Part shown: one piece after another, positions 16,088 through 61,046 of the stretch
How the letters are laid out: every line of letters starts with the position of its first letter
Numbering within the stretch: position 1 is the stretch's first letter
Source: Planctomycetaceae bacterium
Lineage (GTDB): Bacteria; Planctomycetota; Planctomycetia; Pirellulales; Pirellulaceae
Direction: 5' to 3'
Length of the DNA: 64,000 bases
Assembly: GCA_002726515.1 (NCBI GenBank)
Contig: PBTE01000181.1
Coordinates: 11,174-75,173, forward strand
Made by a program: the position numbers and the translations under genes
The notes under the pieces: model-generated
Seen by the model: the letters and a program-made list of their open reading frames with translations, nothing else
Database searches by the model: none
Told to the model about the DNA's origin: nothing

Positions 16088-16168
16088 CCAGAAGATGCCT
16101 ATTTACTAACCAGAACCTGAACCTGCTCTTTCTACACGACACCGCAAAACACGGGAGGTATAAGCCAT

Positions 16169-18645: not shown

Positions 18646-18754
18646 CTCGAGTATCCACCTCTCTAACACCGGCTTAACAAGAACAGTTCACTGGATGCAG
18701 ACACGGCAACCCCGTACCAGACTGGTGCGCCTGGCTGACGAACAACTCTTCCGT

Positions 18755-30577: not shown

Positions 30578-30621
30578 ATGCTAGAAACTCTCCGCTACTA
30601 TGCTAGAAACTCTCCGCCCTG
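30578..30621. repeat. 22-bp tandem direct duplication (ACTATGCTAGAAACTCTCCGC x2)
   Basis: Two adjacent copies differ at one base. They lie in the divergent intergenic region between the DegT gene and the pseudo-receiver gene and overlap the ORF-track ATG at 30600. Confidence 0.7.
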
Positions 30622-30668
30622 ACTGGAAACGACCTTCCGCAGCCCGTTGGGGCTGTCTGCCGCCTCGG

Positions 30669-31532
30669 ATGCGTGTACTGTTCATCACTGAGAGTCGACG
30701 GCGCGCCGGTTGGCTCAATGAAGCATTCGCTACGGACAGCGCCACTGAAATTCAATTGGAGGAAGCGACAAGCCAAGCCAATGGAATTGAACGAATACGC
30801 GACGGTCTTTTCGACGCGATTATCGTGAGCCACGAACCGGAACAATTGGACGCTTTCGAATTTTTAGGAGCCGTACGTGCCGGAAACGGGGAGCACCAGC
30901 CCACGCTGGTTCTGGGCGATTCGCCAGAACACGAAATGAGGGTTTTGAGCTATGAGGTGGGAGCAGGTGCTTATGTATGCATCAACCACACCTCCACGCG
31001 CGAATTGATGTGGCAGCTTGCGCGGGTGATTGAACACCACGAATTGATTGCCGAAAATCGGCGGCTCATGATGGAGCACAAACATCGCTTGCAACTTGAC
31101 CACGAAGAAGCAACCAGGCTGCTGGAACAACAGCACGAATTGGTCAAGAACCCGGAGACTCTCTACTCGCTCGGACGGACAGGACCGTCCCATCCCCGGA
31201 TCACACCATGTGCCGGGGCGCCCGTGCCCGATTCGCTCACTGCGCACTACAAAGAACTGTTGCAAACTTACGTCATCATGGGATCCGGGAACCTGAGCAG
31301 CCGGATCGAAATTTTTTCCTCCCAACTCGCCGACTTGGGGATCACTGCCCAACAAACCATGCAAATGCACCTGCAGGTTTTGGAGCAGGTGGCCAACCAG
31401 CTGAAATCCCGCAGTGCCCGGCACGTTGTCAATCGTGCCGATCTGCTCGTGCTTGATGTGCTGCTGCATCTGTGTGAAGAATACCAGCGGCTCTGGCGGG
31501 AAAATCTTCCGCTTGATTCGCAAGCCGCATAA
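30669..31532 (+). CDS. pseudo-receiver (REC-like) domain protein with C-terminal coiled-coil/helical domain
   Basis: Starts 'MRVLFITESRRR...FDAIIVSHEPEQLDAFEFLGAVR...PTLVLGDSPEHEMRVLSYEVGAGAYVC'. This is a receiver-fold alignment in which the phospho-acceptor Asp is replaced by Ser ('IVSHE'). The ORF frame opens at 30600 inside the tandem repeat. Confidence 0.5.
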   Translation: MRVLFITESRRRAGWLNEAFATDSATEIQLEEATSQANGIERIRDGLFDAIIVSHEPEQLDAFEFLGAVRAGNGEHQPTLVLGDSPEHEMRVLSYEVGAGAYVCINHTSTRELMWQLARVIEHHELIAENRRLMMEHKHRLQLDHEEATRLLEQQHELVKNPETLYSLGRTGPSHPRITPCAGAPVPDSLTAHYKELLQTYVIMGSGNLSSRIEIFSSQLADLGITAQQTMQMHLQVLEQVANQLKSRSARHVVNRADLLVLDVLLHLCEEYQRLWRENLPLDSQAA

Positions 31533-34776: not shown

Positions 34777-36372
34777 TCACTTCGGCGAGCTTGTACCGTC
34801 ATCGGCAGCAGCTACATCCACCGAAGAAGCTGGTCGATCTTCCCCGTTCGAATCACCACCCAGTTTCACCAGAGCTTCCGGCAGTTCGATTCCGCCAATG
34901 TCACGCATGACTTGCATCATGGGTGGCAACGTCTTGGCCATGCCGCTTAAAAAGTCGGCCGTGTTACTGCGACCGTTGGACCCGCCGTTTTCCCAGACAA
35001 CAACCTTGTCGAACTTGATGTTCGAAATCGCTTGCGCTGACGCGGCGGCCAGATTGTCCAGGTGCTCCAGCATCAAGATCTGGAAGGCCTCGTTGGATCC
35101 GCCACAGGCGTCGATGATGCGTTGCAGGCCTTCACCCTTTTTGGCCAGAATTTCAAACTGACCGCGCGCTTCGGCATCCAATCTTGCGAAAATGGCGTCC
35201 GCATCAGCCTTGGCATCGATACGCTTGCGGTCCGCTTCGGCTTCCGCTTCCACGATCACCCGTGCCTTTTCGGCTTTGGCCGGTGCTTCCAACTCGGCGC
35301 GCTTTTCTGCCTCGACCCGTTCAGCTTCGGCCAGGGCCGTTTTGGCCAGGGCCCGGTTCTGAACTTCCAGCACCGTCGCCTCGGCCTCCTTCTTGCGACT
35401 TTCGCCCAATTCGTAGGCCTGGGCCCGTTGTACGGCCAGGTCGGCCTGGGAATGTGCGACCTTAGCTTGAGACAGGTTTTCGCCCTCGATCGACGTCGCA
35501 TCGGCTTCGGCGACCGAAACACGCATCTGCCTTTCCGCCTCTTTCACCTCAGCCTGACGTTGGAACTCGGCACTCCGTTCACCGATCGTCTGCTCCTTAT
35601 CCATGTTCGCTACGCGAATGGACCTGTCACGCTCGGCCTCGCGGGTACCAATCGCCTGCTCCTTCTGCGCGTTGGCGACTTGGATCTCCTTGTCACGCTG
35701 GGCCGCGGCCACCCGAGTTTCACCCATTTTCTCGTTATCTGCCACGTCACCACGCGCCAACTGAATCGCTTCGGAGGCCGCCTTCTGGCCGATTGCGTCG
35801 ATGTATCCCGACTCGTCGGTAATGTCAGTGATGTTCACGTTGATCAGCACCAAACCCACCTTGTTCAGTTCCGGTTCCAAGGACGTTTGGATGTGGTTTA
35901 AAAATGTCTCGCGGTTGCGATTGATGTCTTCGATCTGCATCGAAGCGATCACCTGGCGTAGCTGGCCGAAAATGATTTCCTCGGCCTGCTTGCGAACTTC
36001 GCTGACCGACAAACCGAGCAAACGGATGGACGAGTTCTGCATCACGGCCGGCTCGGTTCCCACCGCCACGGTGAATACACTCGGCACGTTCACTCGAATG
36101 TTCTCGATTGACAACGCACCTCGCAAGGGAATTTCGATCTGGATCGGTTCCAGACTGAGAAATGCGTAGTCCTGAACCAGCGGAACCACAAATGCGGCAC
36201 CACCATGCACCGTGCGCGCCGCCCGTCCGCCTCCTGTCTTACCGTAGATGACCAACACGCGGTTACTGGGACAGCGCTTGTACTGTTTGGCGAGTATGAT
36301 CACAAATGTGAGGAAACCCATCACCGCCAAAATGATGCCGATGCCAATGATCATGGAGGTGGATTCAAACAT
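34777..36372 (-). CDS. flotillin-family SPFH/band-7 protein (YqiK/FloT-like)
   Basis: N-terminal TM 'IIGIGIILAVMGFLTFVIILA', an SPFH core, and a long Ala/Glu/Arg-rich coiled coil ('...AEAERVEAEKRAELEAPAKAEKARVIVEAEAEADRKRIDAKADADA'). ATG at 36372 with AGAGAGGA 8 nt upstream. The ORF frame opens with TTG at 36378. Confidence 0.9.
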   Translation of the reverse strand: MFESTSMIIGIGIILAVMGFLTFVIILAKQYKRCPSNRVLVIYGKTGGGRAARTVHGGAAFVVPLVQDYAFLSLEPIQIEIPLRGALSIENIRVNVPSVFTVAVGTEPAVMQNSSIRLLGLSVSEVRKQAEEIIFGQLRQVIASMQIEDINRNRETFLNHIQTSLEPELNKVGLVLINVNITDITDESGYIDAIGQKAASEAIQLARGDVADNEKMGETRVAAAQRDKEIQVANAQKEQAIGTREAERDRSIRVANMDKEQTIGERSAEFQRQAEVKEAERQMRVSVAEADATSIEGENLSQAKVAHSQADLAVQRAQAYELGESRKKEAEATVLEVQNRALAKTALAEAERVEAEKRAELEAPAKAEKARVIVEAEAEADRKRIDAKADADAIFARLDAEARGQFEILAKKGEGLQRIIDACGGSNEAFQILMLEHLDNLAAASAQAISNIKFDKVVVWENGGSNGRSNTADFLSGMAKTLPPMMQVMRDIGGIELPEALVKLGGDSNGEDRPASSVDVAAADDGTSSPK

Positions 36373-36479
36373 ATTCAAAATCCTCTCTTGCTAATAATTT
36401 TCTGATTTCTCGTTGTATGGAAAGGAAGTTCTTTCAGCAGAATCTCTGTTTGACCCATTCAAGCATGGACCGGGTGACT

Positions 36480-37103
36480 TCAGGCGCCGCTGGCGGGCGC
36501 TGACGGACTGGTCGTTTTGATCAGCTCGACTTCAACAGTCATGGGCGTCAAAATTCGCGATATAGTAACTCTAGCTCCCGCTGGGAGCTTGTCAGGCTCA
36601 CTGGTCATCGCTTTAAGCTCTACAAGCCGCCCCTGCAGTTTAACCTGAATTTTCCCTTCCCCCGCACGCTGGCCAGGAATCGGCAGGTACACACGGCCAC
36701 GCTTGCCCACCGATGCCTCAATCCTCAGGGACCCGTCCTGGTTCAGTTTGCTCAGGCTGCTAATGAGAAAATGCACTGCGAACATGGCTGCTCCGCCGGT
36801 CACGACGGCAATCCCCAACCCTGTCACCGGAAGCAGTGGGACCGATTGGCAGGCCCAGCCCGCAATCCCAAAGAATGTCAGGGCAGCCACGACGGTCTTG
36901 AACGAGATCACACTGAAGAGCCACGTCGATCCATGGCCAACCACTTGGTGAGAAGCAACATCCGAAAAGTCGAGATCAGGCGGCGCATCAACATCTGCGT
37001 CGAAATGGAGGTCGTCGCCGCCAATGCCAATGATGGTCAGGAGAAACTGCAGGACCAAAACCGTACCACCTACGGCCGCACACAACAAATAGAGGGTAAT
37101 CAT
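36480..37103 (-). CDS. NfeD-family membrane protein (flotillin-associated, YqiJ-like)
   Basis: Three N-terminal TM helices and a C-terminal OB-fold segment 'GKRGRVYLPIPGQRAGEGKIQVKLQGRLVELKA'. It sits immediately upstream of the flotillin gene (the classic nfeD-floT operon). GGGAGG lies 8 nt before the ATG. Confidence 0.8.
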   Translation of the reverse strand: MITLYLLCAAVGGTVLVLQFLLTIIGIGGDDLHFDADVDAPPDLDFSDVASHQVVGHGSTWLFSVISFKTVVAALTFFGIAGWACQSVPLLPVTGLGIAVVTGGAAMFAVHFLISSLSKLNQDGSLRIEASVGKRGRVYLPIPGQRAGEGKIQVKLQGRLVELKAMTSEPDKLPAGARVTISRILTPMTVEVELIKTTSPSAPASGA

Positions 37104-41430: not shown

Positions 41431-44400
41431 TTACTCGATGAAACGGCGCAACAGTACCGCTCGATCAACGTTGTGGTTCTTTCCCGGCTCGAAAGCGACG
41501 GGAATCGTCCGATCGACAATATAAAAGGCACGGTGTCGGTTGACCTCCCCCCCCTCCAAGCCGCGCTCCAAACCAGGTTCACCGGTTTGCGGATCGACTT
41601 CGAAATAACCGACCGTGATCCAAATCGCATACACGTTGGAGCGCGTTGTCACCAGATTCCCCAGCCGCTGCAAAAACTGGTAGCGAAAATAGGAGTGGCG
41701 GCTGTAGTGACTGTCAGCGGCCGCTGATGAGTTTTGAAACAGGAGCCTGCCTCTGTCAGCGAAGACACCCGCGGGCCTTAACAGCGTGGCGGCAATCTCG
41801 CGATGCGTGCCTGGTAACAAACCACCTGGTAACATTCCACTTGGAAGAGTCTCGCCGATTATGTTCTCGATTTTCGGTACTAATTGGGCCGATCCAAATG
41901 CTCGAAACGGGTTGCGGAACAAGGTGGGAAAGCCACTGAAACCGACAACAGGGTCGCCGCTTTGCGGGTATCCACGGCGACTTTCTGCCAACTGCTTATA
42001 GTCTGGCCCGGCAAAACCGTTTGTGACAGCATTCCAAACCTTTTCACTGTAAATCGTATTGATGTTAATTCGACCCGGATCACGAAAATACGACAGTTGA
42101 TTGAACGGAGCCTGATACTTTTCAGTCGCCGCGTTGCCGGCTTGAAAGACCACTGGATTCAACTGCATTGATGTACCCAGGAATCGGGAAGGCACATGGG
42201 TCAACTCGAAAACCCGGAACAATTCTGAAGCATCGTTGTTCACGAAGCCCGAATTGAAGAAATTCAGCAAATGGCGATAGCGGGAACTGTTGAAATTAGA
42301 ACTCGACGACTGGTACAGAGTGGGGTCGACTTTCCAGGGTACGTCGCCCGAAGCGGGCCAGGTAAACAAAGCCGTCAGCCGGGCCGAGCTCGTGTGTGGA
42401 ACGTGCAACAACTCGAGGTTGTTGACAAAAGGTCGATTCAACCACAAGAGCCAAGGAAAAGTGTTATTTTGATCGAGTTGATAGTTCCTGTTGCGATATC
42501 CCATCGTGTGCTGCAATTCTTCTCCAGGAGGACCATTAGGTATTCCATTAGGTATTCCCTTGTCTCCCCGGCCCGATTCCATGATCTCAATCGTCGGAAG
42601 ATAAGCCTGCCAAAGAGTGTTGGTCCCAGGAGCTTCAAAGTCACCTCGCTGGAGCGTGACAAACCTATCAGCAACCGTATTTGTTCCCTCGAATTCGCTG
42701 GGCTCTGGTGGAAACGGATCAGCGCCGACCTCGGTTTCGGTTTTACTGTTAAACACCGTGAGATTCACATACATGGAGTCGATCGTGCGGTACGGATTGG
42801 CCTGAGAATCGTAAGGAATCAGTGGGTTGGCCAACCGTTGTAGGTGAATGACCCTGAAATTTTCTCGAGTCCCGCCCTTCATGAGATAATGCTCTTGTTG
42901 GTGATCGGAGTCGTTATCTATATCTAACGGCGTATCAAGCGGGGGATCATACGCCGTTCCATTGATCGGGGGGGGTTGATATCCAGCGATCGGCGCTGAG
43001 ATGTTTAAAACTTCCGTGTCGCTGGAAATTCCAATTGCCAGACAGGTTGCGGGTGGACCTGGAGGCTGGCCCTCTTGACTCACCGTGACCGAGTAATTTT
43101 GTGGATCGAGCTCGATTTTTCGCTTTGCCGGTAACTCGCTGACATAAACGTTAGGGTTTCCTTGCGTGGACTCTCTTGCCGAACCGAGAACCGCAAATTG
43201 ACCCGGCTCCAAAGTCATATCTTGCGCTGGATCCGCACCATTAGCCCAATACTGGTGTCCGTCATTCTGAATATTAGGATTCAAGGTCTCCGGATCCTGG
43301 TCGGTGAAATAAACACTACGCTCGATGTCACCCGGGTTCGGTTCATCGTCCATGCCGTTGGTGGTCACAATCAGCAACCGCCAGACCGGGTCCCCTTCAG
43401 CCGGATCGTTCTGCGTCCGTTGATTGAGGCGAACTCCGAGCAGCTCAACGTAATCGTAGTTTAAATCATTGGTTTTGTAGTCATGGTAGAACTCCGCTGG
43501 CCTGCGATCCTCGCCTGTCCATGGATTATAGAGTTCGATGAACAATGATCCGCGAGGGCGTTCTCTCTGGTCATAGTCGTCATCATGATCGTCAGGTGCT
43601 TGTGCCTCCGGATGTTCCGGATGATAACCTTCGCCACCGTCATCATTGTCCAAATCTTCCGTGCGACGATCATGAAACGCTAACGTTTCGGTGATCAGCA
43701 GTTCGGGACGTTCACAACCCCAAACGATCCTGCGCTCATTGGGGTCGTCTTCTTCATCGGCTTCATCAACCTCTCCATCGAAGTCATTGTCGCGCTCATC
43801 ATTACGGCCATCTGTGGCCGGATCTCCGTTGACGTGCCAGCCATTGAACGGATTGATATCAAACTCAAAGGGTGTCATGATCGAGTCAGAATCGCGGAAA
43901 TCCACCACATTGATGGCCCACTGTGCTATCCCGATAGCTGTTTCCTTGGACGCAAGAGGGTCGAGTTCTTCCAGCGGTCCATGAAAATCGATGGTTTTGT
44001 TGGGTTCTATCAGAGCCATCATCAAAACATACAAGTGCCGAGCGTAAAGGTGCCGAGCCAGTTGGTTTCCGTTAACAGCATTGCCATCGTTCTCCAGATC
44101 CATCCAAACGCCAGCCAAAAACTCCATGTCGGCTTCCGATGGGTCGTCGACGACCAGATTTCTCGGACCGTCGATACCCCTTTGGCCGTCAAAGCCATCG
44201 CCGAACACACGATTTACGTCAAAACGCAAACCTTTGAGAAGGTCGGGGGACAGGAGTTTTTCGAGTTCCAGGCTGATCAACGCCTCGTCGGTAAAACCGT
44301 TCTGACGGAGTAGGCTGCGGACTCTGTCGACAATGCTGCCGGGGAACTTTGGCACGGCAATGTCGTCGCCGTTAGCAATCTTGCCCGGGAAACTGGGTAC

Positions 44401-46287
44401 GGGAACATCAAAACCCTCTGTGGTAATCTGATTACGGTATTTTCTCGAAAAGTTCGGGTCAGCAGCGAACAGTTGGTCGATCCTCCCAACTAACAACGTC
44501 GACCCTGGGGGGCCGCCCGCATCACCGTCGTAGCAACGCAACACGCGTTCCAACTCTGCGGTGGAAAACAAGGTGTCCCGAGAAGTTGCAATATCGCCAC
44601 GCACTGAAAGGGTCGACAGCCCCATCTCATAAGGGCTATCCGTGTTCGGATAGAAGGTGTCGGGACCCTGCGTCTGTGGCCTGACTTTGTCATAAACCGG
44701 TTGTCCGTACGGGTTGACGGAGACTGATGTAAGGCCATGCAGGTCGGATGGACTCCCGAATCCGTGCTTCCAATACTGATCCCAATAGTCTTCCGGATGG
44801 TCATGAAAGGCGACTTCGGATGTTCGACTGTCCTCCAGCGCCGGCATCAAACGCTCGGCATTGGCAACGGTATCTTTACCGACTCGGCCCGGCTTGAAGT
44901 CAATGCCGTAGCGACCCCGTTTTCCGTTTGCTCCTGAAAACAACACCTCCGAATTCGGTCCTAGAAGCTCCTTCAAGTCAATTTCAGCGGGGCCATATCC
45001 CTGCCCTGCGGGTTGGCCCATTGTTGCAGGGTTCTTGGACACGAAACCTGACAGGTCTTGGTGGCCGTGCGCGTTCAGGTTCAGCCGCCCATCCAGATCG
45101 GTGCAGAGAACGGCAAACAGCGGTTTATAGATCCGGCCGTCACTGGCTGTCTTCGTGGGGTATCCCAGGTCCATCCAGATGCTGTCGGTAATTCCGTCGC
45201 TGTCGTTATCAACATCCCATTTCCTCTGAAGACTGGCCGGATTCTGTGGGTCCATGACCGGGTCAAACCAGGGGTTGTTCAGGTGGAATTTGTTGGCTTT
45301 TTGATTAGGGGCTTTGGTGCGATGGTTGGGACGAAAAGAAATTCGCTTATAGAGCGGTGGGTTGTTCGCGGCAACGTCTTCCCCATTCTGTCCGTTCCAA
45401 TAGTTGTTCAAGGCGCGCATCTGGAACGATGGCTTGATATCAGCCGCATGAGACGGATCTGGTGGAAGGATGGCCAGAAACGGATTCTGAAAATCAGCCG
45501 CGTCGTAAGACTCGTCCGAACCACCGGAAATAGCGTCCCACAAAATTGGTTCGGGCTGACCAGCTAAATTCGGAGAAAGTGCATAAGGTACTGCTCCATC
45601 GGATCCAGTCAGGAGTCCGTCGTCATCTGACAGAGTCGTGGGATCGTACCCTACCCCCGTACCGTTAAATGGCCGCCCGTTGACAAGGATGCGAGTACCT
45701 GACGGTAGATCGGTAACCAGATTGTAAATGCGACGATGACTCCCCTCTGGCAAAATCGCCACGCGCAACACAGGTTGACCAAAATCTGGATCTGGAATGT
45801 AGCCAACCACACGTGCGGTGACGCCGGCAGCCGGACCATCGAGCACCGTCAACACCTGTCCGTTGTAGAACCCGGCCGTGGGGCTGGGAACCAACGTCCC
45901 GGCATTGCCATAGATGTCCGTAAAAGTGCCCGCGGCGAGGGGCAGATGCAAAAACTGACCTTGGGTGGCTCCCGCTGACGAAGCACTGCCTGCCAACTGA
46001 CAAATGAAGCCGTCCATGCCGTAGAAGTCGGCCAGAATACTTAAACCGCGCAGTGGTGACTGCTGATTTCGCGTGTCCCGTAAAAGATCGTAGAACGCCC
46101 GGTCAAGTTCTTTTCGCGGGTCGTCTTCGGTTTGCTCCAGGGTCAAACCGACCGCGGAAGCATTCCGGTAATGATGGGCAACGATCGAATAGGTGACTGC
46201 CAGCAGCGCAAACATGGCCAGAATGGCCAGGACGACCAGCAGGAGCACACCGCGTCGCTGTCGGTTTTTTCTTGATCTTTTCAACAT
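41431..46287 (-). CDS. giant (1618 aa) GspK-like pseudopilin-domain protein with Asp-rich Ca-binding-type loops
   Basis: Start ATG (complement of 46285-46287) with AAGGAG 8 nt upstream. N-terminus 'MLKRSRKNRQRRG|VLLLVVLAILAMFALLAVTY' is a pilin-like leader + Gly + hydrophobic helix lacking Glu+5, as in GspK/minor pilins. The body has many DxDxDG-type loops ('DVDNDSDGITDS', 'DENDGNAVNG', 'NDERDNDFDGEVDEADEEDDP', 'DLDNDDGGEGY'). The ORF frame extends to 46458. Confidence 0.6.
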   Translation of the reverse strand: MLKRSRKNRQRRGVLLLVVLAILAMFALLAVTYSIVAHHYRNASAVGLTLEQTEDDPRKELDRAFYDLLRDTRNQQSPLRGLSILADFYGMDGFICQLAGSASSAGATQGQFLHLPLAAGTFTDIYGNAGTLVPSPTAGFYNGQVLTVLDGPAAGVTARVVGYIPDPDFGQPVLRVAILPEGSHRRIYNLVTDLPSGTRILVNGRPFNGTGVGYDPTTLSDDDGLLTGSDGAVPYALSPNLAGQPEPILWDAISGGSDESYDAADFQNPFLAILPPDPSHAADIKPSFQMRALNNYWNGQNGEDVAANNPPLYKRISFRPNHRTKAPNQKANKFHLNNPWFDPVMDPQNPASLQRKWDVDNDSDGITDSIWMDLGYPTKTASDGRIYKPLFAVLCTDLDGRLNLNAHGHQDLSGFVSKNPATMGQPAGQGYGPAEIDLKELLGPNSEVLFSGANGKRGRYGIDFKPGRVGKDTVANAERLMPALEDSRTSEVAFHDHPEDYWDQYWKHGFGSPSDLHGLTSVSVNPYGQPVYDKVRPQTQGPDTFYPNTDSPYEMGLSTLSVRGDIATSRDTLFSTAELERVLRCYDGDAGGPPGSTLLVGRIDQLFAADPNFSRKYRNQITTEGFDVPVPSFPGKIANGDDIAVPKFPGSIVDRVRSLLRQNGFTDEALISLELEKLLSPDLLKGLRFDVNRVFGDGFDGQRGIDGPRNLVVDDPSEADMEFLAGVWMDLENDGNAVNGNQLARHLYARHLYVLMMALIEPNKTIDFHGPLEELDPLASKETAIGIAQWAINVVDFRDSDSIMTPFEFDINPFNGWHVNGDPATDGRNDERDNDFDGEVDEADEEDDPNERRIVWGCERPELLITETLAFHDRRTEDLDNDDGGEGYHPEHPEAQAPDDHDDDYDQRERPRGSLFIELYNPWTGEDRRPAEFYHDYKTNDLNYDYVELLGVRLNQRTQNDPAEGDPVWRLLIVTTNGMDDEPNPGDIERSVYFTDQDPETLNPNIQNDGHQYWANGADPAQDMTLEPGQFAVLGSARESTQGNPNVYVSELPAKRKIELDPQNYSVTVSQEGQPPGPPATCLAIGISSDTEVLNISAPIAGYQPPPINGTAYDPPLDTPLDIDNDSDHQQEHYLMKGGTRENFRVIHLQRLANPLIPYDSQANPYRTIDSMYVNLTVFNSKTETEVGADPFPPEPSEFEGTNTVADRFVTLQRGDFEAPGTNTLWQAYLPTIEIMESGRGDKGIPNGIPNGPPGEELQHTMGYRNRNYQLDQNNTFPWLLWLNRPFVNNLELLHVPHTSSARLTALFTWPASGDVPWKVDPTLYQSSSSNFNSSRYRHLLNFFNSGFVNNDASELFRVFELTHVPSRFLGTSMQLNPVVFQAGNAATEKYQAPFNQLSYFRDPGRININTIYSEKVWNAVTNGFAGPDYKQLAESRRGYPQSGDPVVGFSGFPTLFRNPFRAFGSAQLVPKIENIIGETLPSGMLPGGLLPGTHREIAATLLRPAGVFADRGRLLFQNSSAAADSHYSRHSYFRYQFLQRLGNLVTTRSNVYAIWITVGYFEVDPQTGEPGLERGLEGGEVNRHRAFYIVDRTIPVAFEPGKNHNVDRAVLLRRFIE

Positions 46288-46565
46288 CGCACCTTCTCCT
46301 TTTGGCAAACCCCTTTGGAACACATGTGGCTCACACCGCTGCCATTCCGGTTTGCCTGACATTTCACCCCTGAAATGATTTTTGTGGTCGCCCGTCAACC
46401 GTTTTTCGTTTTCCCGCTCGCTTGGGAAAGACTGCCGCCTCGCTCGACTCGTCGCCATCGCAGCGCAAGCTGCGGCCGCCTGTCACAAGATGTTAATCGA
46501 GAGCTCCTACTTTCATGCACTGTTCGTCGTGCTCCGCTTTCCTCCATTTCACCGCTTGTTGTGTT

Positions 46566-51041: not shown

Positions 51042-52439
51042 TTAGGACAGCTCGGTGATCAGTTGTACCAGGGGCATAAATAATGCGATCACAATGAAGC
51101 CCACCGCGAAGCCCAAAAACACAATCAACAAGGGTTCTAAAATGGCCACCAGGCCATCGGTCATGACGCGCACCGTCTCCTCGTTCTCATCGGCCACCTT
51201 GTAAAGCATCGTGTCCAACTCGCCCGTCTCTTCGCCGACGTCCACCATGTTCACCACGATGTCGTCGACAATTCGGCCATTCATCCGCACCAGGTAAGCC
51301 AGCACCCCGACCAGGGCCAGACCACCCACCAGGGAAGCCAGCATTTGGGTCAGTTCGGGTACGAACATGAACGGCACCGGCCCCATGGCAAACAGGCAGA
51401 CCCAGAAAAACATCGCCACCGGGTGAAACCCCGGCTTGGAAAACTGTTTCATGGGGTTGGAAATCGTATCACCGTCACGAATCGCATCACCGATCTTGCT
51501 GAACATCCGCTCAAAAACGGCGTTACCACACGTCTCCCGCGTGATCGCCAAACCCTCCAGGATCGGCACGCCGCTCGACACCAGGGTGCCCAACGTCCGC
51601 GTCGAACGAGCAAGGATATTCTTTTCCAGAAGGGGTCCGATGACAAACAGCTTGATCATGAACATGTCCCACCCCATCCGGCCGTCGCGAAACTTGCGGA
51701 TGATCTTCACAAAAATTACCATGAAAATCGGAAAGCCCGGGATGAGCCACCAGAAGTCGACCACCGTGTGGGAAACCTTCGTCAACAGCACCGTGATCGG
51801 CGGTAGTTCACTGCCAAAGTCCAGAAAAATCTTTTCGAACTGGGGCACAATCTTGATCATGATAAAGGCCAAAATGCTGACCGCCACCAACACGACCACG
51901 CAAGGATAGATCATGGCTCCCTTCACCTTGCGCTTCAGTGACTCGGCCCGCTCCATAAACTCCGACAAGCGGCGCAAAATCACTTCCAGGGCACCACCCG
52001 CCTCACCCGCCCTGATCATGTTGATGTAGAGTCGATTAAAGACTCTGGGTGACTTGGACAGGGCCTCCGAAAGCGTTGAACCTGCTTCAATGTCTTCGCA
52101 CGTATCCAGCACCGCATTCTGTAGCTTGCCGGGTCTCATTTGACCTTCCAGGATGCGCAGACTGCGGAGGATCGGCAGTCCAGCATCTTGCAAGATCGAG
52201 AGCTGGCGAGTGAAGGCCGTGAGCGCCTTCGAGGACACGCCACCGATGGCGAGCGACTTCTTGCGTTTCCCGCGGCCACCCTCATCCGTCTGCTTGCGTA
52301 TCTTCTTGACAGCAATCTTGGTGACAAAATAACCCTGCTGCCGAATGATCGCCTGGGCTTCATCTTCGTTGTCAGCCTCGATCTCGTCTTTAATCTCTTG
52401 GCCCGTCTTATCCATGGCCATGAATTGATAGGTTGGCAT
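51042..52439 (-). CDS. type II secretion system protein F / type IV pilus platform protein PilC
   Basis: 465 aa. Two T2SSF repeats ('LSILQDAGLPILRSLRIL', 'LGTLVSSGVPILEGLAIT', '...GEETGELDTML') and three TM segments. Confidence 0.9.
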   Translation of the reverse strand: MPTYQFMAMDKTGQEIKDEIEADNEDEAQAIIRQQGYFVTKIAVKKIRKQTDEGGRGKRKKSLAIGGVSSKALTAFTRQLSILQDAGLPILRSLRILEGQMRPGKLQNAVLDTCEDIEAGSTLSEALSKSPRVFNRLYINMIRAGEAGGALEVILRRLSEFMERAESLKRKVKGAMIYPCVVVLVAVSILAFIMIKIVPQFEKIFLDFGSELPPITVLLTKVSHTVVDFWWLIPGFPIFMVIFVKIIRKFRDGRMGWDMFMIKLFVIGPLLEKNILARSTRTLGTLVSSGVPILEGLAITRETCGNAVFERMFSKIGDAIRDGDTISNPMKQFSKPGFHPVAMFFWVCLFAMGPVPFMFVPELTQMLASLVGGLALVGVLAYLVRMNGRIVDDIVVNMVDVGEETGELDTMLYKVADENEETVRVMTDGLVAILEPLLIVFLGFAVGFIVIALFMPLVQLITELS

Positions 52440-52574
52440 CGATCTGTCCCGGCTTAAAGTGCTTTGTGGGAAGTGGTCATTTACATTCCACAGGTTGTGA
52501 GCCGTGTGGCCGTCTGTTTTGCAGGTCTGCGACGCGCAATGATTCTCCGTTCAGTCCTCTGGTCTGCTGGCTCG

Positions 52575-54302
52575 CTATTCTTCGACAATGGTCTCACGAA
52601 TGACTTCCTCGGCCGAGGTCAGGCCCTGGTGCATCATCTTCTCGCCACCCTGTCGAAGCGCCAGCATGCCGTGTCGTCTGGCAGCGACGCGCAATTCATC
52701 GGCGGTGCACTTGTTGAGCACCATCTCGCGCATCTCGTCATTCATTATCATCAACTCAAAAATGCCAATGCGACCCTTGTAGCCCGTGTTGTTACAAACG
52801 TCGCAGCCGCGACCTCGAAAGAATTTTTCTCCGTTCAGGTTGTCTCGACTTTTGTAGTCAAGCTGTGCCAATACTTCGTCGCTGGGATCGATTTCTTCTT
52901 TGCATTGGCTGCAAATACGCCGCACCAGGCGTTGGGCCAGGATTCCTTCGACGGTGGCACAGATCATGAATTCGGGTACTCCCATGTCTCGCAACCGTGT
53001 GATGGTGCTGGGAGCGTCGTTGGTGTGCAGCGTGCTGAAGACGATATGGCCTGTCAACGCGGCCTGAATGGCAATCTCGGCGGTCTCATAGTCGCGAATC
53101 TCGCCAACCAGAATCACGTCCGGATCCTGTCGCAGGATGGATCGCAGGCAAGCCGCAAAAGTCACTCCGATATCCGGGTCAATGGGAATCTGCACAATCC
53201 CGTCGATGTCATACTCGACGGGATCTTCGGTGGTGATCAATTTGTCGGCAATCTCGTTCATCTCCGTCAACGCGGAGTACAACGTGGTGGTCTTGCCCGA
53301 ACCGGTCGGACCCGTCACCAGGATGATGCCGTTGGGCTTTTTCATGAGCTCGCGAAAATCGCGCATCACCACTTCGTCCATCCCGACATTGTTCAAGTCG
53401 AGTTCCACCACGGACCGGTCGAGGATTCGCAGGACACAACTCTCTCCGAACATGGTCGGCATCACACTGACACGCAAATCAACGGGGTGCCCGCCCACGG
53501 TCAGTTCAATCCGACCATCCTGGGGCAAGCGTCGCTCGGCGATGTCCAGGTTAGCCATGACCTTGATACGAGTCGTAATGGCAAAGGAAAGATGTCGAGG
53601 TGGCGGCACCATTTCGTACAAGACTCCATCCGCCTTGATACGGATCCGGAACTCATCCTCAAATGGCTCGAAGTGAACGTCACTGGCTTGGTCCTTGATT
53701 GCCATCAGCAGGACCATGTTCAACAGCTTGCGCACAGGAGCACTGTCGGCCAACGCTTCGACATGGGTCAGATCGATGGCCCCCTCTTCATTCAAGGCTT
53801 CCGCGGCCGCCTGCAAATCCGTGTCTTCGCCCATGTCGCTGACGATCTTTTCAATGCTCTCCGATTCGCCACCGTAGAATTTCTCCAACGTATCGACGAT
53901 ATCAGCTTCGGTCGCGACGACCACGCGAATGTCATACCCCAGAAACGTCCGCAGTTCATCCTGAACCGAAAGATTCTGCGGATCGCACATGGCCACCGTG
54001 AGCGTGTTGCTGTCCTTGTCAAAATGCACGGGTATGATGCGGTACAACTGGGCCATCGGCTCGGTGACGTGTTCCAGAACCTCCTTGGCAATCTGGGTTT
54101 CACGCAGATTAATGACCTGCATCCCCATCTGTTCGGCCAGCCCCTGAGCCAGCTGTTCCTCCGTGATCAGCCCCATCCCTTCGGCCATCTTGCCAAGCAG
54201 CTCACCGGGAGAACGCCGTTGCTCCTCGAGCAGCAGCCCGAGTTGCTCCTCCTGGATATAACCCAGGTCGACCAGAATTTGTCCTATTCGTCGAATGGCC
54301 AT
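52575..54302 (-). CDS. GspE/PilB-type secretion/pilus-extension ATPase (575 aa) with N-terminal GspE_N domains
   Basis: Walker A 'LVTGPTGSGKTTTLYS'. Asp/His boxes 'DPDVILVGEIRD' and 'GHIVFSTLHTNDA'. C-terminal tetracysteine 'CSQCK...CDVCNNTGYKGR'. Confidence 0.9.
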   Translation of the reverse strand: MAIRRIGQILVDLGYIQEEQLGLLLEEQRRSPGELLGKMAEGMGLITEEQLAQGLAEQMGMQVINLRETQIAKEVLEHVTEPMAQLYRIIPVHFDKDSNTLTVAMCDPQNLSVQDELRTFLGYDIRVVVATEADIVDTLEKFYGGESESIEKIVSDMGEDTDLQAAAEALNEEGAIDLTHVEALADSAPVRKLLNMVLLMAIKDQASDVHFEPFEDEFRIRIKADGVLYEMVPPPRHLSFAITTRIKVMANLDIAERRLPQDGRIELTVGGHPVDLRVSVMPTMFGESCVLRILDRSVVELDLNNVGMDEVVMRDFRELMKKPNGIILVTGPTGSGKTTTLYSALTEMNEIADKLITTEDPVEYDIDGIVQIPIDPDIGVTFAACLRSILRQDPDVILVGEIRDYETAEIAIQAALTGHIVFSTLHTNDAPSTITRLRDMGVPEFMICATVEGILAQRLVRRICSQCKEEIDPSDEVLAQLDYKSRDNLNGEKFFRGRGCDVCNNTGYKGRIGIFELMIMNDEMREMVLNKCTADELRVAARRHGMLALRQGGEKMMHQGLTSAEEVIRETIVEE

Positions 54303-54441
54303 GGTGAGAGTGGTGGTCCGTTGGGGTTGGTTCTGTTGCCCTCTACCGAACTCGGAAGGGGGACCCGGTTTTTATAATGGCGTGCCAACACACGAGCGGC
54401 GTTGGAACATGGAAAACTTCTCGCTTCCTTCTGGCCGCGCG

Positions 54442-55563
54442 CTACGTCGGCTGCAACTCGGCTTCCTCCTCCTCCTGACCCTCGTCGCTAATACCCTGTC
54501 TGGCCCGGGCAACCCGCTTGGCCAGTTCTTCCTGAGAGTTGGCTTTCGCCAGGGCATCTTCGATCGTGATTATCTCGCGCCGCCAGAGATCGAAGATGGC
54601 ATCGTCCAGAAGTTGCATGCCGAGCTTGGCACCCGTTTGAATGGCTGAATTGATGCGGAACGTTTTGTTTTCACGAATCAAGTTGGCAATTCCGGATGTC
54701 ACCACCAACAGTTCATGCGCCGCAACTCGACCTCCATCGATTCTGGGAATCAAGCATTGCGACAAGACACCAATGATGGAAGTGGAAAGTTGGGTGCGAA
54801 TCTGCTCCTGCTGGTTCGTGGGAAATACGTCGATGATACGGTTCACCGTTCCCTGGGCTCCCGTTGTATGCAAAGTACCAAACACGAGGTGACCCGTCTC
54901 GGCCGCTTGAATCGCTGCTTCAATGGTCTCCAGATCACGCATTTCACCAACCAGAATCACGTCCGGGTCCTGTCGCAAAGATCGGCGAATCGCCTCGGCG
55001 AAACTCGGCACATCGACCCCTACCTCCCGTTGATTGACGGTCGACTTCTGGTGCTGATGGTAGAACTCGATCGGATCCTCAATCGTGATGATATGATGAT
55101 CGACTTCCTCGTTGATATAGTTAACCATGCTGGCCAAGGTGGTAGTCTTTCCCGAACCGGTCGGACCGGTCACCAAAAACAGACCGCGCGGTTTCATGCA
55201 CAAGTTGATAGCAGCGGGCGGCAACCCCAGCACCTCGAAGGAGAGGAACTCGTTGGGGATCTGCCGCAACACCATGCCGACATTCCCCTTTTGTCGGAAG
55301 ATCGACACGCGAAAGCGGGCCGCGTCGCCAAAAGCAAACCCGAAGTCGCTTCCGCCCTGCTCCTGCAACTCTCGTTGACAACGCTCGGGTGCAATTGCCT
55401 TCATCAGTTCGACGGTGTCCTCCGGCTCCAGCACCTTCGTCTCCAGCCGCCGCATGCGACCGTGCAAGCGGAACACCGGTGGCTGGCCCACCGCAATGTG
55501 GATGTCACTGGCCTCCTGCTTGACGCAAGCCTGCAGGAGTTTGTCGATCAGAATGGTTGGCAT
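54442..55563 (-). CDS. pilT: twitching-motility (retraction) ATPase PilT
   Basis: 373 aa with no N-terminal extension. 'DIHIAVGQPPVFRLHG', Walker A 'LVTGPTGSGKTTTLAS', 'DPDVILVGEMRD', 'GHLVFGTLHTTGA', and the PilT-type 'AHELLVVTSGIANLIRE'. Confidence 0.9.
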   Translation of the reverse strand: MPTILIDKLLQACVKQEASDIHIAVGQPPVFRLHGRMRRLETKVLEPEDTVELMKAIAPERCQRELQEQGGSDFGFAFGDAARFRVSIFRQKGNVGMVLRQIPNEFLSFEVLGLPPAAINLCMKPRGLFLVTGPTGSGKTTTLASMVNYINEEVDHHIITIEDPIEFYHQHQKSTVNQREVGVDVPSFAEAIRRSLRQDPDVILVGEMRDLETIEAAIQAAETGHLVFGTLHTTGAQGTVNRIIDVFPTNQQEQIRTQLSTSIIGVLSQCLIPRIDGGRVAAHELLVVTSGIANLIRENKTFRINSAIQTGAKLGMQLLDDAIFDLWRREIITIEDALAKANSQEELAKRVARARQGISDEGQEEEEAELQPT

Positions 55564-56019
55564 GGTGAATGGGTGTCTGTGGTCTGTCTGTTTTTCGCCC
55601 TCAACCGAGAGGGCTCCAGGTTATCGGATCACGTTCTCACAAAAGCCGCGGCCAGCAGCAGCACACCTCCCGCCACTTCCAAAGGAACTAAGATCCCCAT
55701 GATTTGTCCGTGAACGCCTCGCTGCCCAAAACGTTGTTTCTGTTACTACCCAGATCTGTCCGGGGCTGTTCCTAGATACCAAAGTTGTTCGTCACACAAT
55801 CCTTGGCTGACCCGTGGCAAGGTGATTATTCCCCGTGGCCAGTCCGAACTCAAGCCAGCGGTTCATTTTGAGCTGCCGGGGCTGACTCAGTTTGGCCGCC
55901 CATGAACCTCTTTATGTAGGGCCGGGCCGGGTGGCCAGGGAATTATACGCCGCAAGTGATGTGGCCCCTTCCCGGTTTTTCAGGTCCAACCCGCAGATTT
56001 TATCTATTTTACCAAGGGT

Positions 56020-57768
56020 CTAGCTCGTTGGAGCTGCCATTTGCTGCAGGATTCCAAAGTCATCCTCCGAAGGTTTGGCGACCCGATAGACTTCTTCCAG
56101 GGTCGTGACCCCGTTTAAAACCTTGTCGATTCCATCAGCGTAAAGTGTTATCATTCCTTGTCTTATAGCCTCTTTTCGGATCGCAACGGCCGACTCCCCG
56201 GCAAAGATCAGTTCGCGAATTCTGCTGCTGACCGGCATCATTTCAAAAATCCCTAAACGGCCGTGAAAGCCTCCTCTTTGACATCTTCCGCAACCCTTGC
56301 CTCGCGCAAATTCTCCCGTTTTTGCCAATTCTGGGGTGATGCCGGCTGCCTCCAGTGCCGCCTCGTTGGGTTGATAGGATTCCTTGCAATGGGAACAAAT
56401 TACCCGTATCAGGCGTTGGGCAATCAGCCCAATGACGCTGCTGGCAACAAGATAGGCGGGTACCCCCAAATCGACCATACGTGTCACAGCACTGGGCGCA
56501 TCGTTCGTATGAAGCGTACTGAAAACCAAGTGTCCAGTTAAAGCCGCCTGGATTCCCATCGATGCCGTCTCTAAATCCCGCATTTCACCGACCAGAATCA
56601 CGTTGGGAGCTTGTCGTAACATGGACCGAATCACGCGGGCAAAATCGAGTCCGATCTGGTGGCGGATCTCCACCTGGTTGATGCCGGGCAAGTAGTACTC
56701 CACGGGGTCTTCAGCCGTGATGATCTTCCGGTCCGGTCGATTCATCTCGTTCAGGACAGCATAGAGCGTCGTGGTCTTGCCTGACCCGGTCGGGCCGGTC
56801 ACCAGGATAATCCCGTTGGGTCGCCTCAGCAGGTCCCCGAACCGGTCGTGGTTGGTCTGTGACAGGCCCAGTTGCTGAACTCCGATCCTGATATTGTCCT
56901 TGTCGAGCAGGCGCATGACCACGGACTGGCCGTGATTGGTCGGTATCACACTCACCCGCAAGTCGAGTTCCTTTCCGGCCGTGTCGACTTTGATCCGGCC
57001 ATCCTGGGGCCGACGACGCTCCGCAATGTCGATTCTGGCAAGGATTTTCACACGGGAAATAAGGGGTCCCAACATCCGCCGGGGCGGGCTATCCCGTTCA
57101 ATCAGGCGACCATCAATACGATAGCGAATGCGAACCCGTTCTTCGAACGGTTCGATGTGAATGTCTGAGGCGCGTAGCTGAACGGCTTCGGTAATCATCA
57201 GTTGAACCAGGCGTACGATGGGAGCACTGTTCTCATCGACAACCTCGTCTTCTGAAATTTCTGCATCCTCCGTCTCGGTAAAATCGATGGCTGTGTCGGT
57301 AAACTCTTGCAGCATCGAGTCCGCACTTTCCTCTGCAATTTGACCGTAATAACGGTTGATCGCTTCGTGAATACTTTCTCGTGGAGAAAGTGCCATTTCG
57401 ATTTTCTTGTTGAGGATAAAACGCAACTTGTCCATCGTTTCCAGGTCATACGGATCGCAAACGATGACGGTCAACGTCTCATCTTCTTCCTTGTAAGGCA
57501 GCACGCTGTTTTCACGAGCCACCGATTCCGGGATCAATTCGACCACCGAGGGCGGAATCACGGTGTCTTCCAGCACGAGGTACTCCAACCCGTGCTCCTG
57601 GGCAACCGCCCGCATGACTTCATCGCCCGTGGCATACCCCAAGTGAATCAGTTCGTCCGGCAAAGAACTCCCATTCTGAGCCGCCACCGCCTGGGCATCA
57701 GCCAGTTGGTCTGTGCTGATCACTCCGCGTTGGATCAGGATTTCAGTGAATTTGACGCTTTTTGCCAT
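56020..57768 (-). CDS. second GspE/PilB-type ATPase paralog (582 aa)
   Basis: N-terminal GspE_N ('FTEILIQRGVISTDQLADAQA'). Walker A 'LVTGPTGSGKTTTLYA', 'APNVILVGEMRD', 'GHLVFSTLHTNDA'. Zn-binding 'CSHCK...CGRCQRGGFHGR'. Confidence 0.9.
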   Translation of the reverse strand: MAKSVKFTEILIQRGVISTDQLADAQAVAAQNGSSLPDELIHLGYATGDEVMRAVAQEHGLEYLVLEDTVIPPSVVELIPESVARENSVLPYKEEDETLTVIVCDPYDLETMDKLRFILNKKIEMALSPRESIHEAINRYYGQIAEESADSMLQEFTDTAIDFTETEDAEISEDEVVDENSAPIVRLVQLMITEAVQLRASDIHIEPFEERVRIRYRIDGRLIERDSPPRRMLGPLISRVKILARIDIAERRRPQDGRIKVDTAGKELDLRVSVIPTNHGQSVVMRLLDKDNIRIGVQQLGLSQTNHDRFGDLLRRPNGIILVTGPTGSGKTTTLYAVLNEMNRPDRKIITAEDPVEYYLPGINQVEIRHQIGLDFARVIRSMLRQAPNVILVGEMRDLETASMGIQAALTGHLVFSTLHTNDAPSAVTRMVDLGVPAYLVASSVIGLIAQRLIRVICSHCKESYQPNEAALEAAGITPELAKTGEFARGKGCGRCQRGGFHGRLGIFEMMPVSSRIRELIFAGESAVAIRKEAIRQGMITLYADGIDKVLNGVTTLEEVYRVAKPSEDDFGILQQMAAPTS

Positions 57769-58878: not shown

Positions 58879-59123
58879 CCCCGAACAGGATGGAAAGAAA
58901 TGGAACGACTGTCAGAACATGCGCACCGCCCGTGGTCTGACAGAGGTTCTCCGTAATTCGGCGTCGTTTCTTTGGTGTTTCAGAGCCGGGAGCTTATCAT
59001 GAGAGTAGGCGAATCTGTTCGAAGGCCTGGAAAGTGAAACGCCGCTGCACTCGGCTTGGAGAGATGTTTTACCGCCGGTCGCAGCACACGTCCCGTGGCG
59101 AGATCTTACCTTCCACCCAAGAC

Positions 59124-61046
59124 ATGCCAGGAATTTCCGTCTTGTGCCCTTTCCAAAAACCTGCTGCAAAATATCCTTCCCGGTCCGGGCTGCTGATCGG
59201 TGGGCTCGTGGCATTCTGGCTCGGCGTGTTTACGATCCGGCCGGTGTTTGCCGTGGTCGTCTTTGATTTTACTTTCGAAGACGTGGTAGCCAATACGAAC
59301 GACGGCTTTGACGACCCGGTCCTGGGGGCGGATCGCCGAGCAGCTCTGATTGACGTGGCGAACAACGTCATCGGCAAACAACTCGACCATCAGGCGACTG
59401 TCAGAATCAACATCAACGAATCGAAGGACCTGTCAGACAATACCCTGGCAACCGCCGGCCAGATTTTCTTTGTGGTGCGACGTTCATTTCAAGATGGATT
59501 GGTGGCCGCCGCAATCCAAGAGGACGAGGATCCGTCACCGGGGAATTTTTTAGGTTCGATGACCTGGGATTTTACCCATGACTGGAACCTGAGCAGTGAG
59601 TCCCCCGCTTCCGGAGAGAATGATTTTCGATCGGTTGCGTTACACGAACTGACTCATTTGCTTGGATTTGCCACCCTGATTCGAGAAAATGGCCACGGGT
59701 TGGAGGATGTGACATTCGACACCTTCAGCCGCTTCGATTCGTTCTTGGAAAATTCAACGGGTAGCCCACTGATTACCAGTGGCCGATTCAATGTTGTTAA
59801 CGCGACCATTTCTGATTTGACTACGGCCGTCTTCTTCAACGGAACCCACGCAACTGCAGCCAATGATGGCGACCGGGTTGAACTGTTTGCCGATGCTCCT
59901 TTTGGTCACAGCTCGTTGAGTCACATGCGGGATACGAACGACCCGATGACTGTCAATTTGCCCATTGGATCTTCACAACGCGCCTGGTCGTTGCTCGATC
60001 GTGGAATTCTTCTCGATTTGGGCTATCAGATACCCGACGCGGTGATTTCCAACCTGGACGAAGTGTTGACCGACACCACGCTGACGATTACCGGAAGTAT
60101 GTTTGTCGGGGGTGACCAGTTTGGCGCCCAGATGCCGGGGTCCCTGACTGTCGAAGACTCGGCAGCAGTAAACGTTTTGGGAATTGGCGGGATCTGGGAG
60201 ACGGGTACGCTCCACGTTCAGGGCACCTTTTCAACCGATGGCGCGCTGGCCAACAAAGGTGACGTCGACGGCGCGGGAACCATCGGTGGTGACTTGACGA
60301 ACCTGACCGGAACCATCGCACCGGGTGCACCGATAGGGCGACTCGGCATCACCCAGAACTTCATCCAGGATGCCGGGGGCCGGCTGGAGATGGAAATCGG
60401 GGGCACCACGCCGGCCACTGAATTCGATGTACTGGAAGTAGGAAATGCTGCCCAAGTCGGGGGAATTCTGGAAATTCATGTGCGGAATGCCTACCGGGAT
60501 TTGCCCTCCAGGGGTTTGGTAGACCGTTTTCATTTACTCACTTCGCAGCAGCTGACCGGCACGTTTGATCAGATCAGCTATGCCGGGAAACAGCTCGCCG
60601 TTTCCAGCCCATTGGATGACCGGGGAAGCTTCAGCAGCCACCAGGGAAACGGATACTTTCGCACCGTCCTCTACAGTGACGAAGGGCTTGAGTTTATCAA
60701 CCTGTATGCACAACCGGGTGACCTGGATGGCGATGTGGATATCGATCTCAGCGATTTCAACGTGCTGGCGGCACACTTCGACCCGTTTAATCTTGACTTT
60801 CCGCACAACTGGCTGGAGGGAGATTTTGATGGAGACCAGAAAATCAACTTGACTGATTTCAATTTTATGGCTGCAAACTTTTCTCTGGGAAGCTACAACT
60901 TGGGTGGGTCGAGTTTACTGTCAACCGTCCCTGAGCCAAACAGCGCGTTGAGTTGCGCGGTATTAATAGCGTGCCTGACACTGCTGCGAAACGCTGGTTG
61001 CCGGGAACCCTCCGGACCTGGCCGGCACCATTGTCGCAACTCATAA
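59124..61046 (+). CDS. PEP-CTERM-anchored secreted protein with zincin HExxH motif and dockerin/EF-hand-like Asp repeats
   Basis: Signal '...[25 protein letters not shown]'. The start is uncertain: the ORF frame opens with GTG at 59034. '[12 protein letters not shown]' is a zinc-metalloprotease HExxH. '[20 protein letters not shown]' and '[22 protein letters not shown]' are dockerin-type Ca-binding repeats. The C-terminal '[21 protein letters not shown]' is a PEP-CTERM sorting signal. Confidence 0.65.

Follow-up and report, generated by a model that had tools for sequence, protein, structure and literature searches.

The 64-kb window analysed here, 64,000 nucleotides of contig PBTE01000181.1 from a Planctomycetaceae bacterium, encodes a protein of 1618 amino acids (aa), hereafter the giant protein, in an operon of pilin and motor genes. 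With a probability of roughly 0.6, this protein is the subunit that takes the position of GspK or PilX (K-type) in a Planctomycetota type IV filament machine of the type IV pilus/type II secretion-like kind, displaying some 1200 residues of inserted modules; we infer that it is located at the filament tip.

The N-terminus of the giant protein displays the short basic leader, the Gly and the hydrophobic helix lacking Glu5 that distinguish GspK-type pilins, a signature proposed in a preliminary description of this DNA and found here to be conserved throughout the family. The sequence is MLKRSRKNRQRRG followed by VLLLVVLAILAMFALLAVTY, reading RQRRG/VLLLV around the junction, and about 20 hydrophobic residues follow the leader. 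R12 and G13 are conserved in at least 90% of homologues, and the residue at +5 after the Gly, which is Val in the giant protein, is hydrophobic and never Glu in each of 42 aligned full-length homologues. AlphaFold modelling of the N-terminal part (aa 1-1200) yielded one continuous pilin-like helix extending from residues 14 to 54, far exceeding the length of the h-region of a Sec signal. The G-F-x-x-x-E motif of PF07963 (N_methyl) and TIGR02532 gave no match in the giant protein, as expected for a K-type subunit, whereas all of its pilin neighbours but one reach the N_methyl threshold of Pfam (four of five); the exception is the 396-aa pilin, with 13.7 bits where 21.2 are required.

The start codon adopted for this N-terminus is ATG 46287, which was also the choice of the preliminary description and which is preceded by an AAGGAG ribosome-binding site. 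An upstream ATG at 46458 would produce a longer reading of 1675 aa (41431-46458), and it is this version that constitutes the NCBI annotation of the protein (P0001, from a marine Planctomycetaceae metagenome-assembled genome, MAG); the 1618-aa protein is 100% identical to P0001 from P0001 residue 58 onward. In the alignment of the 42 homologues the leader preceding the conserved Arg-Arg-Gly most commonly comprises 10-13 aa, which favours ATG 46287 and leaves the upstream ATG of the NCBI version unsupported. The start at 46287 leaves 278 nt untranslated on the minus strand (46288-46565), separating the giant gene from that of the 396-aa pilin; the NCBI reading covers part of this gap. A scan of the operon for consensus promoters and terminators returned counts at chance level.

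The giant gene is part of a minus-strand operon arranged in the order GspE-type ATPase, PilT, GspE-type ATPase, GspF/PilC, GspG-like pilin, three minor pilins, giant protein and 485-aa pilin (Table 1). Both GspE-type ATPases contain an MshEN domain, which in MshE binds cyclic di-GMP. The three minor pseudopilins previously noted upstream of the giant gene were thus confirmed, but its pilin neighbours also include the GspG-like pilin, likewise upstream, and one pilin downstream. All five of these carry Glu5, such that the giant protein is the only one of six pilin-like gene products to lack it and therefore sits in the GspK/PilX position. The arrangement was compared in 29 related loci with full flanks. 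Upstream of the giant homologues, tblastn matched the 345-, 329- and 396-aa pilins in 28, 27 and 24 of the 29 loci, respectively, with order and strand retained, and GspF was located farther upstream of the minor pilins, the succession GspF, GspG-like pilin, 329-, 345- and 396-aa pilins, giant protein being preserved in related genomes. The 485-aa downstream pilin was matched in 6/29 loci; a motif scan identified a pilin-like open reading frame (ORF) downstream of the giant gene in those same six, and a seventh locus has one at a distance of ~2 kb.

The preliminary description had treated the 1618-aa ORF as a genuine gene, and rightly so, as more than 500 full-length homologues were retrieved, of 1500-2100 aa and 30-47% identity, with approximately 100 invariant residues. 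Every one comes from Planctomycetota, with Pirellulales, Planctomycetaceae and Thermoguttaceae among the groups represented. They bear the name 'hypothetical' throughout, lack precomputed Pfam domains and are covered by no model of Pfam or NCBIfam. The family is encoded in at least 558 species-level genomes. Its C-terminal 274 residues, used as query in an exhaustive HMMER search, matched 3658 clusters (50% identity) at E<=1e-3; with this domain alone, 1446 of them score below 1e-30. Natural 'mini' versions were sought among the short hits of this search, all of which proved to be N-terminally truncated fragments. One homologue (L056) lies on contig JABMRB010001179.1, labelled as a 'Candidatus Nealsonbacteria' MAG; the other loci are all from Planctomycetota, and this contig is probably mis-binned. 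Another locus (L057) has, besides its giant homologue, one further ORF above 1200 aa; it encodes 1399 aa (15968-20167, plus strand) and lies ~5 kb downstream of that homologue. The literature searched on the giant family, the 'Verru_Chthon cassette' and planctomycetal minor pilins contained no description of the giant protein.

At the opposite end of the protein, conservation extends to the final residue. The C-terminus reads ...R[F/Y/R/I/Q]IE in 40 of the 42 homologues and terminates in LE in the other two, R1615 and E1618 are invariant, and no homologue displays an extension. This invariant end fits the role published for terminal β-strands, which GspK and CpaL provide in cis and PilY1 and MshQ in trans (PMC13533445). 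Two overlapping AlphaFold models were obtained, comprising residues 1-1200 (predicted local distance difference test, pLDDT, 70.6; predicted template modelling score, pTM, 0.72) and 419-1618 (pLDDT 72.8, pTM 0.85). Low pLDDT was observed in the highly conserved residues 399-437 of the first model, where the DLDGRLNLNAHG block remains below 50 while the C-terminus is missing, and in residues 1595-1611 of the second, which cover the start of the terminal strand. Low values where the other end is missing are the pattern expected of a pilin sheet split between the two termini, and the models are consistent with conserved segments that need each other or the α1 helix. Structural matches of the β-sandwich/immunoglobulin (Ig)-like and lipoprotein-like kind were also obtained.

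Calcium-type acidic loops, with which the protein had been described as studded, do exist in it, strict DxDxDG occurring twice against 0.24 expected from shuffles, but they are fewer than that wording suggests: one canonical DxDxDGxxD loop only is conserved across the family, and two of the four loops originally quoted are lineage-specific. The conserved loop contains DNDSDGITD (aa 360-368), inside a near-invariant WDVDNDGDGxxDSVW block in which D358, D360, D364, W371 and D373 are invariant. The loop quoted as DENDGNAVNG in fact reads DLENDGNAVNG (aa 729-739) and is moderately conserved, as DxxNDG. In contrast to the conserved loop, NDERDNDFDGEVDEADEED (aa 829-847) belongs to an insertion missing from most homologues, and DLDNDDGGEGY (aa 878-888) to a variable acidic stretch. 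Residues D796, F797, D799 and D801 of the AQWAxNVVDFRDxDS block are conserved. Judged from these motifs, the giant protein may bind calcium. Conserved acidic clusters would not be unexpected in a K-type subunit, since GspK has two canonical calcium sites and XcpX a third (PMC6211770). Arrays of thrombospondin type-3 or cadherin repeats, suggested by the style of the loops, were rejected, as the scan gave no repeat-family match, the loops are isolated and the only trace was one faint Dockerin_1 match (E 0.29). DxDxDG loops are also present in the neighbouring pilins of 485, 329 and 291 aa, which contain 4, 2 and 2 of them, respectively, where shuffled sequences would give 0.04-0.10. Calcium-type loops thus seem, on sequence grounds, to be a general trait of the subunits of this filament, beyond the giant protein.

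The following results weigh against the assignment to the K-type position, and most concern kinship with GspK. The 64-kb window contains no secretin and no prepilin peptidase. Profile searches against the T2SSK hidden Markov models (HMMs) returned nothing: Pfam T2SSK and T2SSK_1st and NCBIfam GspK gave no match with the full protein, its sub-regions, consensus sequences or family profiles. The Pfam/NCBIfam scans covered the full protein, three sub-regions, an insert-less chimera, 26 C-terminal domains, 26 full-length members and consensus sequences, and GspK left a single trace, NF037980 at E 0.09, confined to the first 21 residues of the chimera. Sequence searches of the Protein Data Bank (PDB) with the giant protein and two family profiles found nothing relevant. 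In hhalign comparisons, family profiles aligned with E. coli GspK alone over the N-terminal helix only, and the whole-family profile did the same with a GspK profile built from a 31-sequence alignment (P = 4.6e-4 over 29 columns of the N-termini). HMM similarity of the N-terminus was no stronger for GspK (16.3 bits) than for GspJ (15.4 bits). A hand-picked collapsed core gave an hhalign probability of 79% (P 1.6e-5) and was rejected as biased, the segments having been chosen after the GspK motifs had been read. With near-free gap extension, the real GspK profile scored 62.6 against 58.1 +/- 6.6 (maximum 71) for 60 block-shuffled or reversed decoys, and with conservation-selected blocks at best 5 of 60 decoys equalled or exceeded the real score. 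Foldseek searches against the PDB returned no match, and the structural matches to GspK were weak; the putative split-sheet topology was drawn from two overlapping partial models.

Comparison by eye does reveal GspK-like motifs that follow GspK order in the giant protein: DLDGRLNLNAHG resembles D....FNLN, VDFRDxDS resembles DWxDxD, NRPFxSxxEL resembles ANxxxxxxxELR, RLLEYxxVPS...GRININT resembles YxRLxPxVxxLP...NxNT and SNVYAVWITVGYFEV resembles SxYFxV. These collinear motifs constitute a lead; sequence homology of the giant protein to GspK beyond the N-terminal helix is not demonstrated, and kinship of the two is weakly supported. Because no GspK HMM recognises the giant protein and its length is five times that of GspK, it should not be filed as a member of the GspK family. 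A GspK/CpaL-like mode of action is likely.

PilY1, a tip adhesin that is not a pilin, has an EF-hand-like calcium site. The giant protein could be an adhesin of the PilY1/MshQ kind, exported through Sec with its N-terminus acting as signal peptide or anchor and its C-terminal β-strand donated in trans to a minor-pilin complex, but this appears improbable. Its 1618 residues fall within the size range of PilY1 and MshQ and outside that of pilins (PMC13533445), minor pilin genes adjoin it as they do pilY1 and mshQ, its extreme C-terminus is invariant, it contains an EF-hand-like DxDxDGxxD loop and the GspK HMMs do not match it. The operon, however, encodes no other Glu5-less K-type pilin that could take up the strand in trans, its five other pilins all having Glu5. 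Moreover, a conserved RRG precedes the helix, no AxA site is conserved after it and the helix is predicted to remain unbroken for 40 residues. A C-terminal β-propeller of the PilY1 type (IPR008707) was considered and rejected, as it has no match in the giant protein, and its combination with a Sec signal peptide, typical of PilY1/PilC, is likewise not seen.

Alternatively, the protein might be a bitopic inner-membrane component of the enlarged planctomycetal periplasm, an envelope scaffold or alignment factor that fulfils the roles of GspC/L/M or of the PilMNOP/secretin linker and forms no part of the filament. Genes for GspC/L/M, PilM/N/O/P, secretin and prepilin peptidase are missing from the operon and from the whole 64-kb window, a positive-inside leader with one transmembrane helix would also suit a type II membrane anchor, and most of the body of the protein has no detectable similarity to pilins. 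Yet throughout the phylum the giant gene sits among the minor pilin genes and away from those for the ATPases and the platform, the Gly at -1 is conserved and the free C-terminal end is strictly conserved, like that of tip-complex proteins (PMC13533445), so that this explanation, too, is given a low probability. The view that the ORF results from misannotation, or that gene fusion or decay has left it without a function of its own, draws on nothing beyond the missing database annotation. Conservation effectively refutes it, with over 500 full-length homologues among which approximately 100 residues are invariant; the 1446 clusters below 1e-30 for the C-terminal domain and the confident AlphaFold domains (pTM 0.72 and 0.85) speak against it as well.

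As a K-type tip subunit, the giant protein would be inserted in the inner membrane by its N-terminal hydrophobic helix, and its basic leader would be removed by prepilin peptidase after Gly13. Lacking Glu5, it would behave as GspK and PilX do and become the first and topmost subunit, nucleating a tip complex with the PilV/GspI-, PilW/GspJ- and GspH-like minor pilins encoded beside it. The content of the operon further suggests that the GspG-like pilin would polymerise beneath this complex, driven by GspE/GspF and possibly retracted by PilT. The pilin core would be split, its helix and DLDGRLNLNAHG strand coming from the N-terminal part, and three β-strands from the extreme C-terminus, including the invariant ...RRFIE end, closing the sheet in cis in the manner of GspK and CpaL. 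The ~1200 intervening residues (a small β-barrel, calcium-type loops, a helical region and β-sandwich/Ig-like modules) might then be displayed at the filament tip as a head for adhesion or substrate capture, a speculative role prompted by the β-sandwich/Ig-like and lipoprotein-like structural matches and by the dextran-binding fibres of planctomycetes (PMC5394234).

In comparison with GspK and XcpX (PDB 3CI0 chain K and 5VTM chain X; PF03934, PF21687), the giant protein displays a similar N-terminus and, like them, is the one product without Glu5 in its set of minor-pilin genes; a GspG-type pilin and minor pilins of the GspH/I/J type are encoded alongside, and GspE/GspF adjoin. Both have calcium-type acidic motifs, GspK with its two canonical sites (PMC6211770), and C-terminal β-strands that run to a free C-terminus, and the giant protein may share with GspK a non-pilin module set within the pilin core. 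It differs in length (1618 versus ~325 aa, five times longer), in the lack of HMM or profile-profile similarity past the N-terminal helix and in its insert, which is predicted to be mostly β with mixed modules, in contrast to the two SAM-like helical domains of GspK. Gene order is H-I-K-J here versus H-I-J-K, and the operon of the giant protein also has PilT.

According to a 2026 study, a K-type minor pilin has its β-sheet completed in trans by the final ~10 residues of PilC/PilY1 or MshQ, while GspK and the ~600-residue CpaL give the same strand in cis, the large middle of CpaL being partly dispensable (PMC13533445). PilX/PilK with PilY1/PilC in type IVa pili, and MshP with MshQ in the mannose-sensitive haemagglutinin (MSHA) pilus, thus combine a K-type pilin with a tip protein of more than 1000 residues (PMC13533445), two roles that the giant protein could unite; these pairs differ in comprising two polypeptides, the large one not a pilin, and no PilY1 β-propeller was detected in the giant protein. 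CpaL/TadG of the tight adherence (Tad, type IVc) pili has an N-terminal minor-pilin-like domain, a large middle and a C-terminal strand that returns in cis (PMC13533445), the design proposed here for the giant protein, although CpaL, likened to it by published description, measures ~600 aa and belongs to another filament class. Modular type IV pilins (Streptococcus sanguinis PilB and PilC, Thermus ComZ, enterotoxigenic E. coli CofB) carry a module grafted on or in a pilin for display at the tip (PMC8179133), as is proposed for the giant protein. The largest modular pilin surveyed has 860 aa and the canonical IPR012902 N-methyl motif (PMC8179133), whereas the giant family spans 1500-2100 aa and lacks this motif. 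Conceptually, the giant protein belongs among modular and K-type minor pilins, its own family being undescribed in the literature searched.

A further link leads to the Verru_Chthon cassette. The neighbouring pilins weakly match cassette protein D with E 4.3e-8, C with E 3.8e-3 and B with E 0.05, none of these matches reaching its cut-off, and the prediction that the giant protein corresponds to cassette protein A was written down before it was tested. TIGR02600 (Verru_Chthon_A) was the only recurrent NCBIfam family for the C-terminal domain, found in 2 of 26 members (best E 0.01), with one match among the 26 full-length members (E 0.0088). The LGNLVTTRSNVYAVWITVGYFEV motif of the giant protein aligns to positions 1199-1233 of the 1296 of the TIGR02600 profile, near its C-terminus. 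The TIGR02600 cut-off of 332 bits was not reached, the consensus of the giant family scoring 9.9 bits. Each E-value is weak, but the recurrence of the single family named beforehand, among 18,950, exceeds chance, and it points faintly to the sister phylum Verrucomicrobia as the home of the closest named relative of the giant protein. Verru_Chthon A, whose profile spans 1296 positions, is likewise large and has B, C and D, all prepilin-type, as cassette partners in a sister phylum of the PVC (Planctomycetes-Verrucomicrobia-Chlamydiae) group, a setting to which that of the giant protein may correspond; it differs in that scores are far below cut-offs and that 1-2 of 26 giant members match. We know of no function assigned to TIGR02600.

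Table 1. Features of the giant gene, its protein and the filament operon; positions are those of the window, residues those of the giant protein.
Feature	Residues	Position	Strand	Remarks
GspE-type ATPase, one of two		56020-57768	minus	Pfam T2SSE and MshEN
PilT		54442-55563	minus	Pfam; between the two GspE-type ATPases
GspE-type ATPase, other of two		52575-54302	minus	Pfam T2SSE and MshEN
GspF/PilC platform		51042-52439	minus	Pfam T2SSF
Motor genes together		51042-57768	minus	same operon as giant gene
GspG-like pilin (major?), 291 aa		50046-50921	minus	TIGR01710 E 3.8e-17, PF07963; two DxDxDG loops
Minor pilin, 329 aa		48839-49828	minus	FTLVE; two DxDxDG loops
Minor pilin, 345 aa		47771-48808	minus	FTLVE; GspH-like/Verru_Chthon D-like; TIGR02596 E 4.3e-8, TIGR01708 E 4.8e-4
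Minor pilin, 396 aa		46566-47756	minus	G/LTLIE; PilV/GspI-like N-terminus; TIGR02523 E 8.9e-6
AAGGAG ribosome-binding site		46296-46301	minus	exactly 8 nt 5' of ATG 46287; read from sequence
Giant ORF, 1618 aa	1-1618	41431-46287	minus	includes stop codon (41431-41433); ATG at 46287
Basic leader, MLKRSRKNRQRRG	1-13	46249-46287	minus	putative prepilin-peptidase site after Gly13
Pilin-like α1 helix	14-54	46126-46248	minus	AlphaFold, DSSP; unbroken; first ~20 residues hydrophobic
Second helix	57-70			AlphaFold
Small β-barrel-like region	~94-202			AlphaFold
Acidic loop WDVDNDGDGxxDSVW(x)D	356-373	45169-45222	minus	putative Ca2+ site, from motif
DLDGRLNLNAHG block	397-408	45064-45099	minus	invariant; resembles GspK D....FNLN strand, without statistical significance
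Helical region	~650-800			AlphaFold
AQWAxNVVDFRDxDS block	788-802	43882-43926	minus	resembles GspK D-W-x-D-x-D Ca-site motif; lead only
Lineage-specific acidic insertion	826-850	43738-43812	minus	holds NDERDNDFDGEVDEADEED; gap fraction 0.64 in family alignment
β-rich central modules	~850-1180	42748-43740	minus	β-sandwich/Ig-like character
Mostly helical or coil region	1280-1545			AlphaFold
Conserved C-terminal domain	1345-1618	41434-42255	minus	motifs VPSRF, PGRININT, LVTTRSNVYAVWITVGYFEV, RHRAFYIIDRSIPV
Terminal β-strands	1552-1558, 1586-1592, 1611-1617			AlphaFold
Extreme C-terminal strand	1608-1618	41434-41466	minus	...AVLLRRFIE-COOH; DSSP strand aa 1611-1617
Minor pilin, 485 aa		39959-41416	minus	FTLVE; PilW/GspJ- and Verru_Chthon C-like; directly downstream of giant; PF07963, PRK10557 E 4.9e-4, TIGR02599 E 3.8e-3; four DxDxDG-type loops

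Elsewhere in the window, a 310-aa ORF on the plus strand (30600-31532) matches PF07688, the C-terminal domain of KaiA in Pfam, with E 7.9e-8 and 33 bits, the cut-off being 22.2; a domain of this cyanobacterial clock protein is unexpected in a planctomycete. Two other sizeable plus-strand ORFs, of 670 aa (59034-61046) and 362 aa (7200-8288), are without a Pfam match, at E<=1e-3 for the former and E<=1e-5 for the latter. The minus strand (34777-37103) encodes a 533-aa SPFH/Band-7 protein and, next after it, a membrane protein of 207 aa without a Pfam match, an arrangement that recalls SPFH-NfeD pairs; a separate Peptidase_S49/NfeD1b_N protein is encoded at 8490-9620.

The giant family is very large and wholly unannotated, and it occupies a fixed slot in an apparently widespread Planctomycetota type IV filament operon. 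If its members are tip subunits, the known size range of pilin-like proteins would be roughly doubled, the previous maximum surveyed being 860 aa (PMC8179133). They would represent a natural combination of K-type pilin and large tip adhesin in one chain, which bears on the β-strand-addition model of tip-complex licensing (PMC13533445), and would pose the mechanical question of how a head of at least 175 kDa passes across the outer membrane. A more ambitious interpretation, tentative and on the whole unlikely, sees in the giant protein the largest known pilin-like filament subunit (175-230 kDa), a single-chain fusion of 'GspK in cis' and 'PilK plus PilY1 in trans' that might serve the dextran-binding planctomycetal fibres (PMC5394234) as a head stabilised by calcium and able to bind carbohydrates or surfaces, and be the ancestral PVC counterpart of Verrucomicrobia cassette protein A. 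Pili-like fibres of planctomycetes bind dextran (PMC5394234), and the literature searched gave no molecular composition for them; as a tip subunit, the giant protein would be a concrete candidate for their ligand-binding end, an idea that is testable because genetic tools exist for Planctopirus (PMC11958385).

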